DNA from: Waddlia chondrophila WSU 86-1044
GTDB lineage: Bacteria; Chlamydiota; Chlamydiia; Chlamydiales; CAMCWV01
Assembly (NCBI GenBank): GCA_945882915.1
Contig: CAMCWV010000003.1
Coordinates: 64,785 to 128,784, forward strand
Reading direction: 5' to 3'
Length of the DNA stretch: 64,000 nt
Below the pieces are notes generated by a model, which worked only from the letters and a program-made list of their open reading frames with translations, did no database searches and was not told the origin of the DNA. A program made the position numbers and the translations under genes. This document shows positions 2,210 to 56,374 of this stretch, one piece after another (within the stretch, counting starts at the first letter, position 1; every line of letters begins with the position of its first letter).

Positions 2210-2256
2210 TATACTCCTCTTAGCTGAAAACGGAAATTTGGGCTAAGAGGAGCACG
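2210..2256. repeat. PE-A palindromic element, mini form
   Basis: TATACTCCTCTTAGCTGAAAACGGAAATTTGGGCTAAGAGGAGCAC. Begins 8 nt after the stop of the GYF_2 gene. Confidence 0.7.
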
Positions 2257-2332
2257 TAATGTAAAAACATACTAATGGTTGCCCGGCAGACTCAATTGGC
2301 AACTGCTTGTTTTAAAGTATTTCGATCTGTCT

Positions 2333-3076
2333 TTAGTGGGCGGCTTCGAGGTGCCAGTGTGTCGCAAGGCTTAGCGCAACAAGAGAAGCTGTGTCGGTGC
2401 GAAGAATGTTTTCATGGAGCTTAACCCCATATGCTTTGAGCTTCAGAAGCTTTGCTTCTTCTTGCTCTGTAAATCCACTTTCAGGACCCACAAAAAAGCA
2501 CATTCCCTTTGAAGGGGGATTTTGATGCCATGCTTCTGAGAAAAGAGGCGCTTTTGGCTTAATATCTCCAAAAAACGCAGCACAACTAGGTACCAAGTCA
2601 GGTTCAGTCCATTTTTCTAAAAGAGGCTTAAAGATAATCATAGGTAAGTGAAGCCTTCCACACTGTTTCATTGCTGCAATTGCCACGCTTCTTAAGCGGG
2701 CGTGTTGAGAAGCAACTAAATCCCTCTCACTCAACTTGCCAGGAAACATCCAAAGCTGGGTGATCCCAAGTTCCGTTCCCTTTTCGACAATGAAATCCAA
2801 TCGATTAAACCGAGGAACGGCCTGGGCAAGGATAACCTCAAATGAAGGCTTTGGCTCACTTTTAAGTGCATTAATTACCAGCTGCGCTTCGTGCTTTTTG
2901 ACCTGAGCAAAAACAGCCCGAGCCAGCTGCCCCTGCCCATTTACAAGCTCGATACCATCCCCTACTTTAAGGCGCATCACGCGGACTGCGTGGTGGAACT
3001 CTTGCTCCTCCAATAAAACATGGTCCCCTAAAGCAAAAAACTGGTCACAAAAAAAACGTTCAGCCGGCATGCGCAA
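2333..3076 (-). CDS. rsmE: 16S rRNA (uracil1498-N3)-methyltransferase RsmE
   Basis: 247 aa. Has the PUA-like N-terminus (EFHHAVRVMRLKVGDGIELVNGQG) and the SPOUT C-terminus FFVGPESGFTEQEE..ILRTDTA. Confidence 0.85.
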   Translation of the reverse strand: MRMPAERFFCDQFFALGDHVLLEEQEFHHAVRVMRLKVGDGIELVNGQGQLARAVFAQVKKHEAQLVINALKSEPKPSFEVILAQAVPRFNRLDFIVEKGTELGITQLWMFPGKLSERDLVASQHARLRSVAIAAMKQCGRLHLPMIIFKPLLEKWTEPDLVPSCAAFFGDIKPKAPLFSEAWHQNPPSKGMCFFVGPESGFTEQEEAKLLKLKAYGVKLHENILRTDTASLVALSLATHWHLEAAH

Positions 3077-3095
3077 CTCTCACTACTCTTCTTCT

Positions 3096-4862
3096 TTATT
3101 CTTCCTCAATAATGCCCTTAAAGACAAGTGCACGCGCAGGGTCCATCGTCACTAGCTGCGCTTCCTTAATCATCTTACAAGCAGCATCCGCACGCACAAT
3201 CAAAGACTTATAGAGCGTTTTGGCAACAGAAAGGGCCCTCTTTTCTGAATCGCTATCTTCCAGGCGGTTTTGTAGAATGATCCCCACACAGTGGCGGACA
3301 AAAGGAATGTAGGCATCATCAAAGCGAGTAGTCACCAAAATCTTTCCCTCAACTGATGCAGGATCCATTTTTTCTGGAGAGAGGACAAGCGTTACAGGGG
3401 CATGAATGCATTCTCCGTATCCTGTAAAGCCCCGCACAAGCACATCTCCAATACTTTCGACAATAATCGTATTTGTCGTGCCCGATTCACCAAAAGGAGA
3501 GCCCGCTACAAACACAACAAGGTCTCCGTAGTGAACGTATCCTCTTTTTAACGAAAATTCACTGATTCTATCGTAGGCCTCATTCATCGAATGGCATCCT
3601 TCGCAAAAGAAAGGAATCACCCCCCAAATAAGAGAGAGTTGGTGGTAAACTTTCTTGTCTGAGGTAAGTGCAATGATCGACATCTTTGGCCGCAGCCTCG
3701 CAAGAAGGGCCGCAGTGACACCGTGACTTGTGCAAGCAAAAATTGCTTTAGCATTTGAAGTGTTTGCTGTTTTAACAGCAGCCAAAGTAACCGAAGAGGC
3801 AACATCGTTATAGACGCGCTGTGAATGGCGGAAGAACAGCTCTGGGTAGTCAAGATCCTTTTCAGCTTCTGAGATGATACTTCTCATCACCTGCACCGTC
3901 TCGCAAGGGTACTTCCCTACTGCAGTTTCTGCAGAGAGCATTACAGCTGAGGTGCTGTCGTAGATCGCATTTGCAACATCCGAAGCCTCCGCACGCGTAG
4001 GACGGGGATTTTGAATCATAGATTCAAGCATCTGTGTCGCTGTCACAACCGGCTTCCCAGCAAGGCAACACTGCCGGATCATCATCTTTTGTAAGCGGGG
4101 CACCTGGCTTAAGGGAAGCTCAACGCCCAAATCCCCTCTGGCCACCATAATCCCATCTGACACCTGCAAAATAGAATCAAAATGCTCAACACCCTGCTTA
4201 TTTTCAATTTTGGCAATAATCAAGATGTCAGGTCTAGAAGCTTCGTTAATCAGCTTCTTAATAGCCAGAACATCCTCGGGACAGCGAATAAATGAAGCGG
4301 CGATAATATCAATGTCGTTATCACAGCCAAAGCGGATGTCGGCAATGTCTTGTTCAGTAAGCGCGGGCAGGTCAACAGCAACATCAGGAACGTTAACCCC
4401 TCCTTTTGATTTCAAAATCCCTTTGTTGTCGATCTCAATGACAACCCCATCAGAGACCACTTTTACGACGTGTGCAGAGACGTAACCATCATTAAAAAGG
4501 ATGACAGTCCCTTCATGAAGTTTTTCTAAAATGATTGCTGGATTGATCGAAACAGCCTTTTTGTCACCCTCAATCACTTTACTGGTAAGAAGGATCTGAT
4601 GCCCTACTTCAACCTCTACACTCCCATTTTTGACCTCACCAAGGCGAATTTCAGGGCCCTTAGTATCGAGCATGATCGCCATAGGCGTTTGAAGCTGATC
4701 ACGGGCTTTTTTGATCTTGTTAATGACGTCAATATGTTCTTCATGACTTCCGTGACTGAAGTTCAATCGAGCGATGTTCATACCTGCATTAATTAGGTCG
4801 ATAATCCCTTCATAAGAGCTAACGGCCGGGCCTATCGTGCAAATAATTTTTGTCTTTGTCAT
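3096..4862 (-). CDS. pyk: Pyruvate kinase with Bacillus-type C-terminal PEP-utilizer-like extension
   Basis: 588 aa. Motifs: TKIICTIGPA, NIARLNFSHGSHEEH, MVARGDLGVE. About 110 extra C-terminal residues resemble the mobile domain of PEP-utilizing enzymes. Confidence 0.95.
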   Translation of the reverse strand: MTKTKIICTIGPAVSSYEGIIDLINAGMNIARLNFSHGSHEEHIDVINKIKKARDQLQTPMAIMLDTKGPEIRLGEVKNGSVEVEVGHQILLTSKVIEGDKKAVSINPAIILEKLHEGTVILFNDGYVSAHVVKVVSDGVVIEIDNKGILKSKGGVNVPDVAVDLPALTEQDIADIRFGCDNDIDIIAASFIRCPEDVLAIKKLINEASRPDILIIAKIENKQGVEHFDSILQVSDGIMVARGDLGVELPLSQVPRLQKMMIRQCCLAGKPVVTATQMLESMIQNPRPTRAEASDVANAIYDSTSAVMLSAETAVGKYPCETVQVMRSIISEAEKDLDYPELFFRHSQRVYNDVASSVTLAAVKTANTSNAKAIFACTSHGVTAALLARLRPKMSIIALTSDKKVYHQLSLIWGVIPFFCEGCHSMNEAYDRISEFSLKRGYVHYGDLVVFVAGSPFGESGTTNTIIVESIGDVLVRGFTGYGECIHAPVTLVLSPEKMDPASVEGKILVTTRFDDAYIPFVRHCVGIILQNRLEDSDSEKRALSVAKTLYKSLIVRADAACKMIKEAQLVTMDPARALVFKGIIEEE

Positions 4863-4969
4863 TTAATACCACCCCTTACAGATCTATACTCCTCGTGCTT
4901 GACAGCGTTTAGCTTACCGCCCGCTTAAGGAACGAGCGTTAGCGAATTAAGGAACGAGCGGTAGCGTTG

Positions 4970-5116
4970 CTCTTTGGAGTGCTGGGACAAGTCCAACGCT
5001 TTGTTAGGACTCGACCTGTCTAGTCCACTGACCCTTAGCAAGCGAACGTGTGTGTCTGGCCCTCGACATGTCGAGGGCTGGTGAAAGCGTTGGACATATC
5101 CCTGCACTCCAAAGAG
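4970..5116. repeat. PE-C (GGAGTGC-ended) MITE-like element
   Basis: About 33-bp TIRs (CTCTTTGGAGTGCTGGGACAAGTCCAACGCTTT / AAAGCGTTGGACATATCCCTGCACTCCAAAGAG). An internal perfect hairpin GGCCCTCGACATGTCGAGGGC is present. Confidence 0.8.
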
Positions 5117-55388: not shown

Positions 55389-55420
55389 CAAAAAAAAGGG
55401 AGACATTTTTTGTCTCCCCC
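55389..55420 (-). terminator. Rho-independent terminator of hctA
   Basis: Minus strand reads GGGAGACA-AAAAA-TGTCTCCC followed by TTTTTTTT. Confidence 0.8.
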
Positions 55421-55457
55421 TCAACCTGCAAACTAATGACACAAGCTCAAAGAGAGC

Positions 55458-55844
55458 CTATTTCAATTGTCCTGGTTTGTGACTCGCTGTTGCGCGTCTA
55501 GGTGGAGCTTTTCCGCTAGAACCACGAGCTACTGCCTTTTTTGGAGCTGCCTTTTTTGGAGCTGCCTTTTTTGGAGCTGCTACTTTAGCTTTCATTTTTG
55601 GCTTTGCTTTTGACTTGCCAGTTTTTTTTGTCCCTTTTTCAGCTGCAATGGACACCTTGCGATAAACCTTAGAAGCTTTTTCGAACAAAATCGTGTTTAC
55701 ACGTACGCGCTGAGAAGCTGCTTTGTTCCCTTTTTCAAAAGCACTTGACAAATCATTTTTAGTCACATCCAAAAGTGCATGCATAGTTTTCACAATTGCG
55801 GCTAAATCCATTTTTTTTGGATGAGACCCCTTTTTCACTGCCAT
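55458..55844 (-). CDS. hctA: Histone H1-like nucleoid protein Hc1
   Basis: 128 aa. EKGNKAASQRVRVNTILFEKASKVYRKVSIAAEK closely parallels chlamydial Hc1 (EKGNKAAAQRVR...KVYRKESI). The tail is Lys/Ala/Pro-rich. Confidence 0.9.
   Translation of the reverse strand: MAVKKGSHPKKMDLAAIVKTMHALLDVTKNDLSSAFEKGNKAASQRVRVNTILFEKASKVYRKVSIAAEKGTKKTGKSKAKPKMKAKVAAPKKAAPKKAAPKKAVARGSSGKAPPRRATASHKPGQLK
55532..55576. repeat. 3 x 15-bp perfect tandem repeat (CTGCCTTTTTTGGAG) encoding AAPKK repeats of the Hc1 tail
   Basis: Read directly from the sequence. Lies in-frame within hctA. Confidence 0.9.
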
Positions 55845-55883
55845 AACAACCTCCTATAAATTTAAAGTTACGTAACAACTTCT

Positions 55884-55913
55884 TCCATATTTGCTTCGCA
55901 GATATTTGTGCAA
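55884..55913 (-). promoter_or_regulatory. Candidate hctA promoter: TTGCAC, 18 nt, TATGGA (minus strand)
   Basis: The hexamers are read on the minus strand about 40 nt upstream of the ATG at 55844. TAGGAGG lies just upstream of the start codon. Confidence 0.3.
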
Positions 55914-56099
55914 TGTTTTTTTATCATTTTTTTTTATCGACACCCTTTTCTGAGTCCATTTAAAACCCTGAATAAACTTTATTTACCGCTCTCAGCTATA
56001 CTAAAAAGGCCTAAGCCAGAAAAGTGATCAAGAATAAAAGTTCTCTACTTTTTTTTAACGGACATCTTGTAAAGAGTTGGAAGCTTATGCCAAACAACC

Positions 56100-56374
56100 T
56101 ATACTCCTCTTAGTTGAAAATGGGGCTTTGGACGCCGGACAAAAGAAAAAAAAGAGAAGAAGTCCGTAGCGATTAAAGGGTTGCCGTTTCCAGAGGGTAA
56201 CGTGGGCCGTCTAAGGTCTGGGATCTAACCTGCCACCAAGCAAACGTTTGCTGTAGGCTTCGGTCTGAAATCCCAGACCGTCCCGGTCTGGTTACCTTCT
56301 GGAGACGGCAAACGCTAAGGCCGCGGGAGCTTTCGCGCTAGCCCAAGTTCCCGTTTTCAGCTAAGAGGAGTATA
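56100..56374. repeat. PE-A carrying ~200-bp palindromic cargo in its apex
   Basis: The outer TIRs are intact. The interior holds further inverted repeats (CCGTTTCCAGAGGGTAAC / GGTTACCTTCTGGAGACGG and GGTCTGGGAT / ATCCCAGACC). Confidence 0.85.

Follow-up and report, generated by a model that had tools for sequence, protein, structure and literature searches.

How did one palindromic sequence come to be scattered between the genes of a chlamydial genome, and does it serve the genes beside it? The question is raised by a 64-kb stretch of DNA (positions 64,785 to 128,784 of contig CAMCWV010000003.1, assembly GCA_945882915.1; hereafter the window, 64,000 nt in full), in which an earlier reading of the letters alone had proposed a dense family of nested palindromic elements, PE-A. 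Chlamydiae are usually described as repeat-poor. [quoted passage not shown]

The 34-nt arm of PE-A, TATACTCCTCKTAGCTGAAAAYGGGAAYTTGGRC, was matched 23 times in the window at three or fewer mismatches on both strands, and none of 100 dinucleotide-preserving shuffles gave any match (expected 0 versus 23 observed). All 15 loci of the original prediction were upheld on re-reading, with two corrections to their coordinates: the solo arm starts at 31264 and not at 31266, and 18251-18335 is composed of a 71-nt copy plus a partial arm. The copies add up to 1904 nt, or 3.0% of the window. Of these bases 1802 are in non-coding DNA, and every copy was observed within intergenic DNA or at its edge, in keeping with the intergenic placement that had been claimed; the claimed nearness to stop codons was also borne out, as many copies begin or end 1-12 nt from one. 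Intergenic DNA makes up 10.4 kb (16%) of the window and PE-A fills 17% of it. In a self-comparison of the window repeats of all kinds sum to 4.78 kb, and PE-A together with four or five other repeat families renders roughly 45% of the intergenic DNA repetitive. Common housekeeping genes flank the copies (pyk, cydAB, rnpA/rpmH, folP, tkt, alaS, mfd, efp, yajC, tgt). The copies in the window are as follows, with the strand where one is assigned:

2210-2256: 47-nt remnant with a full left arm and a degenerate right terminus CTAAGAGGAGCACG, in a convergent region where a GYF-domain gene stops 7 nt ahead of it.
5205-5274, minus strand: 70-nt form in which GGCGCCAAAGCC joins a full arm to a truncated one, between the divergent genes pyk and cydA; the synteny with contig L016 breaks off inside it.
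5430-5499, plus strand: 70-nt form in mirror orientation to 5205-5274, in the same pyk/cydA region and present in both strains.
9456-9552: 97-nt form, two arms around a perfect GCGCCAAAGCCCCGGGGCTTTGGCGC palindrome, in a tandem region with the stop of a DTW-domain gene 1 nt away and an EamA gene on the other side.
12010-12173, plus strand: 164-nt type-1 copy, unit 1 of a head-to-tail dimer in the divergent rpmH/rpmJ region.
12170-12333, plus strand: 164-nt type-1 copy, unit 2 of the dimer, 98% identical to unit 1; the junction is GGAGTATACTCC, with one TATA shared.
18251-18335, minus strand: 71-nt form (18251-18321), a TATATA junction and a partial arm TAGTCCTCTTAGCTG; contains the folP stop (open reading frame (ORF) 18308-19237, minus strand).
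22642-22697, plus strand: half copy, one arm and the GC module, forming the last ~35 codons of the higA-like ORF 22611-22988.
31264-31297, minus strand: solo arm at the apex of a palindrome of another family (CTCTGTG...TTTCAAAA).
31389-31513, plus strand: type-1 copy without its right arm; the tkt ORF (minus strand, end at 31496) finishes within it, with its last 6 codons and its stop.
33656-33737: 82-nt perfect palindrome in which GGCGCCAAAGCCCC separates two identical arms, between the divergent genes tkt and alaS.
39851-39997, minus strand: 147-nt derivative of type 2, its central hairpin lost between GTTRCC microhomologies; the mfd and PNP genes converge on it, each with its stop codon 12 nt away.
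41179-41342, plus strand: 164-nt type-1 reference copy upstream of efp, between divergent genes.
51822-51985, minus strand: 164-nt type-1 copy, inverted, filling the pcm/yajC spacer, its terminal GAGGAG 10 nt upstream of the pcm ATG.
52435-52598, minus strand: 164-nt type-1 copy, inverted, between yajC and tgt; the stop of tgt is 3 nt away.
56100-56374, plus strand: 275-nt copy of type 2, in which PE-A arms enclose another cargo hairpin of ~150 nt, between hc1 and a divergent SIS-domain gene.

The family extends beyond the window. Further contigs (~66 kb; contigs other than the window are given L numbers here) were fetched through a search of a protein database with PE-A-encoded peptides, which matched only the proteins P0121, P0122, P0123, P0125 and P0127. 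In the resulting 130 kb of unique sequence from the same organism we counted 57 arms, distributed over 31 loci. This corresponds to about one locus per 4.2 kb, a density that is slightly biased upward because each of the extra contigs was found through a PE-A copy. Other contigs of this organism belong to the NCBI metagenome-assembled genomes (MAGs) GCA_947441125.1 and GCA_947446165.1. The chlamydial origin proposed for the genome agrees with a chlamydia-specific Hc1 histone (PF07432) encoded at 55458-55844 and with the neighbours of the alanyl-tRNA synthetase (AlaRS), which has no relative between 100% and 67% identity; its nearest named relatives are Parachlamydiaceae/Chlamydiota MAGs at 63-67% identity. 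By these markers the host would be an isolated, uncultured lineage of Parachlamydiaceae-related chlamydiae. Elsewhere the family was not observed: an exact 23-mer of the arm, on which the absence from the GTDB representative genomes rests, had no match there, and a degenerate arm pattern had none among the matches listed; the JGI metagenomes gave no match to the arm pattern or the core junction, IMG/VR none to the arm, and plasmids none to type 1 or type 2. PE-A modules are also absent from three relatives with AlaRS identities of 65-67% (L009, L010, L011).

PE-A is an imperfect palindrome over its full length, with 34-bp terminal inverted repeats (TIRs) that end in TATA and arms of the form TATACTCCTC... 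Across 17 copies, 94.8% of the cells in the outer 26 bp of the arms are paired. The long copies had been described as three palindromes nested inside each other, and the re-read modules of the 164-nt form conform to this: the outer arms enclose a GC-rich module, with GGCGCCAAAGCCCCGGGGC as its left and GCCGCGGGAGCTTTCGCGC as its right part, and this in turn encloses the inner hairpin (TGAACGATCG...CGATCGTTCA). This form folds into a single long hairpin (-99.8 kcal/mol, z = -15.8), and the short forms fold with z-values of -8 to -16. The long type-1 copies (n = 8) have a mean identity of 92%, and all eight share the same asymmetry, with C15/T22/C28 in the arm of one side against T15/C22/T28 in the other and GCa against GCb. 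Such identical left/right asymmetries indicate descent from a master copy rather than independent shaping. No Pfam-bearing ORF was found within the copies, whose forms range from 47 to 315 nt. Apart from the 164-nt form, the following length classes were observed, listed by start position:

97/98-nt form, inner hairpin missing: 9456; L013:4350; L016:4180.
82-nt form: 33656.
70-72-nt form, one arm cut at a GGG/CCC microhomology: 5205, 5430, 18251; L013:12429.
Type 2, 260-315 nt, PE-A arms enclosing another, ~150-nt cargo hairpin: 56100; L006/L007, upstream of uvrC.
Type-2 derivatives, 147-162 nt, cargo apex lost between GTTRCC repeats: 39851; L006:3264.

The 70-nt deletion form was found at 4 loci, and half copies and solo arms are common (2210, 22642, 31264, 31389). 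The deletion derivatives have microhomology at their boundaries, and the length classes appear to have arisen mostly by hairpin-promoted internal deletion and by recombination between copies. The nesting had originally been read as stepwise insertion into hairpin apices, and this holds in part. The solo arm at 31264 occupies the apex of another family's palindrome and, in a search for paralogous empty sites, was the only one of the copies inside another repeat; the paralogous palindrome at 29797-29996 has an unrelated apex, and the two apices cannot be aligned. Within one type-2 copy of L006 (6015-6069) we observed a 46-nt mini-palindrome, TAACAGTTCACAT...ATGTGAACTGTTAC, with a 9-bp direct duplication, AAAAAAGAG, both lacking in four paralogues (L007, window 56100, window 39851 and L006 3264). 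This filled and empty pair of paralogous sites indicates that small palindromes do insert in the host genome, and the inner core likewise recurs within four types of outer arm (see below). The short forms, on the other side, are better read as deletion derivatives bounded by microhomology than as steps of insertion.

The ends of the copies bear on how PE-A might move. TATA was found at 47 of 50 PE-A ends, the next outward base was T in 41 of the 50 (82%), and A/T-rich positions followed, so that the flank context is symmetric and target-like (WWA-TA-TWW). Where copies abut, the junction is GGAGTATATACTCC in three of four cases (window 18318, L012 and L017) and GGAGTATACTCC in the remaining one. 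The TATATA junctions and T-rich flanks fit the duplication of a TA target, with TACTCC...GGAGTA as the putative element proper, and target duplication is indistinguishable here from stem extension because the junction sequences are themselves palindromic. On the TA-duplication model a 98-nt copy inside the ORF of P0122 amounts to exactly 96 added nucleotides (32 codons), which are read through in frame; P0122 has a single real homologue, P0124, and their alignment ends at the residue before the insert.

We lean towards mobilisation by a TA-duplicating enzyme of DDE type over a route of the kind used by REP-associated tyrosine transposases (RAYTs; REP, repetitive extragenic palindrome). A transposase supplied in trans, recognising either the ends or the hairpin, would have made the copies by inserting them into the AT-rich target and duplicating its TA, as in MITEs of IS630/Tc1-mariner type. 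Hairpin-promoted slippage would have deleted the apex, taking the 164-nt form to 98, 82 and 70 nt and the 315-nt form to 147 nt; copies would have recombined with one another, and small palindromes would occasionally have been inserted at the apex. The long RNA hairpins formed in co-transcribed spacers would be a by-product and not a selected function.

Several observations weigh against this account. No empty site was recovered for PE-A, and no presence/absence polymorphism was observed between assemblies or strains that are 99.8-100% identical: L001 and L002 are 100% identical to the window, L015 is 99.91% identical to L013 with no indels, and L017 differs from L018 by 29 single-nucleotide polymorphisms with no indels. 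Comparison of orthologous sites was uninformative because the nearest genomes, at 67% AlaRS identity, are without PE-A. A cognate transposase, which the original prediction had proposed as a check, was not found: none of the genes called in the window and in the other ~66 kb (~130 kb in total) has a transposase domain, and we observed there only degenerate IS30-like N-terminal remnants without PE-A ends. The terminal TATA may belong to the element and not to a duplication, because a TATAC terminus is common to the diverged relatives, and two dimers look like local tandem duplications rather than independent insertions. Furthermore, the palindrome is full-length, with arms and core covarying, and a DDE transposase that acts on terminal repeats needs no such pairing; full-length pairing fits hairpin-dependent (HUH/RAYT-type) mobilisation better. 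What stands of the mobility claim is thus a dispersed, non-coding palindromic family with subfamilies and with abutted and half copies, while the movement itself, with neither an empty site, a polymorphism nor a cognate transposase to hand, is something that we infer.

Full-length pairing leads to the rival that PE-A is of REPIN/REP type, in which an inverted pair forms a hairpin of single-stranded DNA and is copied without target duplication by a single-copy, domesticated Y1_Tnp (RAYT/TIRYT). The whole of PE-A is a hairpin with compensatory changes. At position 11 of the arm, 10 copies have a G-C pair, 6 a T-A pair and 1 a mismatch, and across the core variants of PE-A, of a second element called PE-C and of L022 (both described below) pairing is kept by two-sided changes at 10 of 32 pairs. 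Exceptions of G-U and of A-C kind are about equally common, and there is therefore no sign that one RNA strand is being selected; maintenance of the hairpin as DNA, by a hairpin-recognising enzyme or by templated repair within the palindrome, is the more economical explanation and keeps a REPIN/RAYT-like mechanism alive as the main rival. GTAG stands at arm positions 11-14 in about two thirds of the arms, and the same tetranucleotide is the tag of RAYT-REP systems (PMC3733652). Like REPs and TIR repeats, PE-A forms singlets, dimers and clusters, and a Y1_Tnp gene flanked by GTAG-containing inverted repeats in the related chlamydial MAG L011 indicates that such systems exist in the group. However, the L011 repeats have no sequence in common with PE-A, and no Y1_Tnp gene was found in the ~130 kb. 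The G of GTAG is replaced by T, along with its partner, in one third of the arms, where a cleavage tag should be invariant; the palindrome extends 10 bp past GTAG; and single arms are not self-complementary, unlike REP units of 20-40 bp, so that an invariant GTAG/CGTC tag at the foot of such a unit, as in REPs in the strict sense, is not seen. Moreover, flanks rich in TA and junctions that read TATATA are what one would rather expect of MITEs that duplicate TA. On balance we judge the REPIN/REP reading unlikely.

The L011 locus was observed in its own right. This contig (ENA ERZ25039499 contig_9130; AlaRS 65% identical, 52% GC) encodes a RAYT-like Y1_Tnp of 291 aa at 19474-20349, flanked by tandem inverted repeats of ~131-135 nt that contain GTAGCCCACGGTGTAG (16114-16314, 18144-18233, 19161-19439 and 20395-20672) in a REPtron-like arrangement. 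A gene for a group II intron reverse transcriptase lies nearby (16378-17637).

A different answer to the opening question would be that PE-A is a selected cis-acting RNA element, serving as a terminator, as a 3'-end stabiliser or RNase III site, or as a hairpin that sequesters the Shine-Dalgarno sequence. The hairpins are very stable on either strand, many copies lie as close to stop codons as described above, and the GAGGAG of the terminal stem, as found ahead of the pcm start codon, pairs with CUCCUC. Correia elements of Neisseria, a comparable family, are RNase III substrates and create promoters (PMC2649163). The terminator role given to PE-A in the original prediction did not hold up. No copy was called as a terminator-like site (hairpin plus T-tract) in the scanned stretches 1-20000 and 30000-49999, and flanks read directly showed a T-run at only about 2 of 24 ends, so that most copies are without a T/U-tract. 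Occupancy of intergenic regions by PE-A, by our own count in the window, was highest between divergent genes, where no transcript ends (5 of 9 regions; convergent genes 2 of 9, tandem genes 6 of ~28). The orientation of the copies is independent of the direction of transcription, and both orientations were observed among genes read the same way. Since T-tracts and any tie to orientation are lacking and divergent occupancy is highest, a terminator role is unsupported, and a primary terminator function is unlikely.

Further observations count against a selected RNA signal. Half copies, dimers and copies within ORFs would be senseless for a dedicated signal, C-A mismatches are tolerated at arm positions 15 and 22 in about a third of the copies, and the balance of G-U and A-C mismatches noted above carries no strand-specific RNA signature. 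Covariation of the outer arms was considered as evidence of a selected RNA and rejected, as it comes essentially from one site and its score is modestly above that of shuffles (9/500). Rfam returned no family at or above the gathering threshold in the whole window; below threshold, a type-1 copy matched only generic microRNA-precursor hairpins, and type 2 matched none. In all, we consider a selected RNA role very unlikely. A scan for outward promoters gave counts that overall were not above those of shuffles, and none are claimed; TTCCCA-N17-TATAtt can be read at several PE-A ends as possible outward -10-like boxes. Copies do lie in operon spacers (sctU-sctV in L016; yajC-tgt), and long RNA hairpins would therefore be expected in polycistronic transcripts.

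Copies also reach into coding sequence. Copies contain the ends of four ORFs and the stop codons of folP and tkt, and the higA-like ORF gains ~35 PE-A-encoded residues. Two thirds of the frames in which an arm can be entered reach a stop within 6 codons, and the short form is open in one orientation and frame only.

Several contigs of the organism part company within PE-A, and Logan and MEGAHIT contigs stop inside copies. L016, which comes from another sample, aligns without gaps to window 9453-5227 at 99.83% identity and diverges inside the copy at 5205-5274, where a hybrid 98-nt copy leads to sctU/sctV rather than to pyk. We take the k141 contig names to imply MEGAHIT with a final k of 141, and the L016 junction is probably real because the element is shorter than the final k-mer of the assembler; it would then be a product of recombination between PE-A copies. 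A look-up of pyruvate kinase returned no contig from the variant sample, and the reciprocal junction was thus not observed. In assemblies of three samples (L006, L007 and L008) the sequence upstream of uvrC differs, with all three contigs diverging inside the same type-2 copy, ~2.1 kb upstream of window position 1 (L006/L007 6143). At position 11 the left arm of L006 matches the shared right arm (G/G) and that of L007 does not (T/G).

Divergence of this kind raises the rival that the pattern is an artefact of metagenome assembly or binning, made of chimeric contigs or collapsed repeats. Contigs from separate samples part ways within PE-A or within other palindromes, and some of these joins could be chimeric. 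However, the window is identical to the ENA contigs ERZ27280265 k141_1821409 (161 kb) and ERZ27280263 k141_533196 (96 kb) and to Logan contigs, and the same 20-kb stretches with the same copies came out identical in at least three samples and with a second assembler (Logan). The copies differ among themselves by 2-12% and are flanked by ordinary single-copy chlamydial housekeeping genes. As the sequence recurs in independent assemblies of several samples, an artefact is effectively refuted.

The inner module was predicted to stand alone near the start of the window. It does occur apart from the PE-A arms, at 1107-1186, but there it is joined to a different terminus, PE-C (GTTATAGTCGATTAAATCTCAAATRATAGGCTGAGACA). 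This terminus was found at 1070-1106, 11339-11398, 14949-15008 and 23470-23530, always one-sided, and fusions of core and PE-C span 1070-1186, 11339-11398, 14925-15008 and 23436-23530. Two of these fusions are:

1070-1186, plus strand: GC module and CGATCG hairpin core joined to the PE-C terminus GTTATAGTCGATTAAATCTCAAATGATAGGCTCA...
14925-15008, plus strand: right half of the core hairpin, GCb module and PE-C terminus, with a lipid A acyltransferase gene on one side of the spacer and a glycosyltransferase gene on the other.

A more distant relative was reached through one weak peptide match. Contig L022 (ENA ERZ25039604 contig_28220, 41% GC) carries three PE-A-like elements at 10055-10376 and 11544-11699. 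Their ends begin TATACC, their inner arm segment is ATTTGGGCT, and they share with PE-A the asymmetric GC module and the CGATCG hairpin base; outer arms, upper stem and loop all differ from those of PE-A. Two tRNA-like 3' halves lie nearby in L022 (11326 and 15361). The shared architecture of these elements indicates a superfamily that is not limited to one species, with the core as its most conserved part. This core sits within at least four unrelated types of outer arm (PE-A, PE-C and two types in L022). It is conceivable, though doubtful, that the conserved unit is the ~95-nt core (asymmetric GC module plus CGATCG hairpin with an AT-rich loop) and that it marks a new mobilisation system which recognises hairpins and targets their apices. 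If so, insertion specific to the apices of existing palindromes would build the nested hairpins, and the enzyme would be neither a DDE transposase of IS630 type nor a classical RAYT.

Returning to PE-A as MITE-like DNA, published bacterial MITEs are <200 bp, with terminal inverted repeats, 5'-TA-3' termini, A+T-rich targets, stem-loop transcripts and size classes that differ by internal segments (PMC2229807, Delihas 2008), a profile that the properties of PE-A appear to match. As in the definition given there, PE-A is small and non-coding, with terminal inverted repeats and many dispersed copies; a parent insertion sequence (IS) or transposase with matching ends, which the definition also names, was not found in the ~130 kb. 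We place PE-A as a new family of MITE/REP type that is most like the Correia/NEMIS elements and the IS630-type MITEs (RUP). Correia/NEMIS elements (CREE) are ~100-160 bp, with long TIRs beginning TATA, a TA target and size classes set by a ~50-bp internal segment (PMC2229807). They occur in hundreds of intergenic copies, often co-transcribed as long hairpins (PMC2229807; PMC2649163). PE-A shares with them its non-coding nature, TATA-beginning TIRs, TA ends, size classes by internal segments and intergenic hairpins, and differs in its unrelated sequence, its phylum, its palindromic character throughout, its three nested levels and its conserved core hairpin. RNase III processing, promoter activity and TA duplication have been demonstrated for Correia elements, whereas for PE-A we infer them.

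The other known families are partial matches, and as far as the comparison went PE-A has no sequence in common with any family named here. RUP of S. pneumoniae is about 100 bp, with TIRs and TA insertion, and an IS630-family transposase is proposed to mobilise it in trans (PMC2229807). The partner IS of RUP, whose ends match, is known, while no partner of PE-A was found in the ~130 kb. Like REPIN and REP-BIME elements (PMC3733652), PE-A consists of inverted pairs that act as one imperfect hairpin, with compensated halves, a GTAG-like tetranucleotide and singlets, dimers and mosaic clusters, and it differs from REPINs in its 34-bp non-hairpin arms, in a variable GTAG that is not at the foot of the palindrome, in its TA-rich ends and in the lack of a RAYT in the ~130 kb. 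The RPE elements of the obligate intracellular Rickettsia are palindromic repeats that can lie within ORFs and be translated (PMC3733652; PMC2229807). PE-A resembles them in its obligate intracellular host and in its occasional translation within ORFs (the read-through of P0122) but is overwhelmingly intergenic. No description of a chlamydial MITE or REP family was found in the open-access full-text literature, and a 2024 review of prokaryotic MITEs never mentions Chlamydia; the family and its abundance in chlamydiae appear to be undescribed.

Other repeats were observed in the same intergenic DNA. A second palindromic family has arms ...CAGGATAAAAAACAGGATA...TTTTTGAAACACAGAGAACACAGAGA / TCTCTGTGTTCTCTGTGTTTCAAAAA around a variable apex, sometimes with cargo, and was found at these positions:

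8225-8308, 13436-13468, 23256-23331, 29797-29996, 31177-31366, 44865-44953 and 47095-47211: copies in the window.
L013 12214-12316: copy outside the window.

The contigs L013 and L014 diverge inside one copy of this second family. A further repeat with GCGTCAAATCTTTCTTGACAAAATCGCCCTG, which includes TTGACA, has six intergenic occurrences in both orientations (926-969, 1363-1446, 8134-8177, 12528-12571, 23378-23419 and 23609-23693), and a repeat with ...TTCAACGCAAAGATGCAAAGAA... stands directly after the alaS, epmA-like and SIS-domain genes (36437-36492, 43005-43060 and 56962-57017). The HigA ORF that runs into a half PE-A copy belongs to a higB/higA-like toxin-antitoxin pair at 22611-23175, whose HigB appears N-terminally short (58 aa). 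Direct repeats of 99 nt, 98% identical, at 22288-22386 and 23916-24014 (the latter extending to 24073) bracket a gene-poor stretch of 1.6 kb with higBA and repeat fragments, which may be a cassette or mark the boundary of a duplication. Short ORFs that start MP(K/E)GYHHLT... were observed at window 24067-24195 (minus strand) and L012 1170-1260; they are degenerate, with ~60 nt alignable, and their starts resemble the N-terminus of IS30-family transposases. These IS30 remnants were considered as a partner of PE-A and rejected, as they share ~60 nt only and are without PE-A ends. Finally, window 24001-28000 has a GC content of 40% against ~46% elsewhere and carries SOUL heme-binding, NmrA/DUF2867 and protoporphyrinogen oxidase-like genes.

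PE-A is an unusually dense repeat family for its phylum, with effects on assembly, synteny and protein ends. Given this heavy repeat load, assemblies of the lineage fragment or join differently at these sites. The copies are ready substrates for rearrangement, as in the cydA-pyk versus cydA-sctU junctions, and they alter protein C-termini. RNA hairpins inside operons such as sctU-sctV may affect expression, a possibility that is open to test. The family would serve as a set of markers for strain typing and for studying how selfish DNA persists in an obligate intracellular bacterium.

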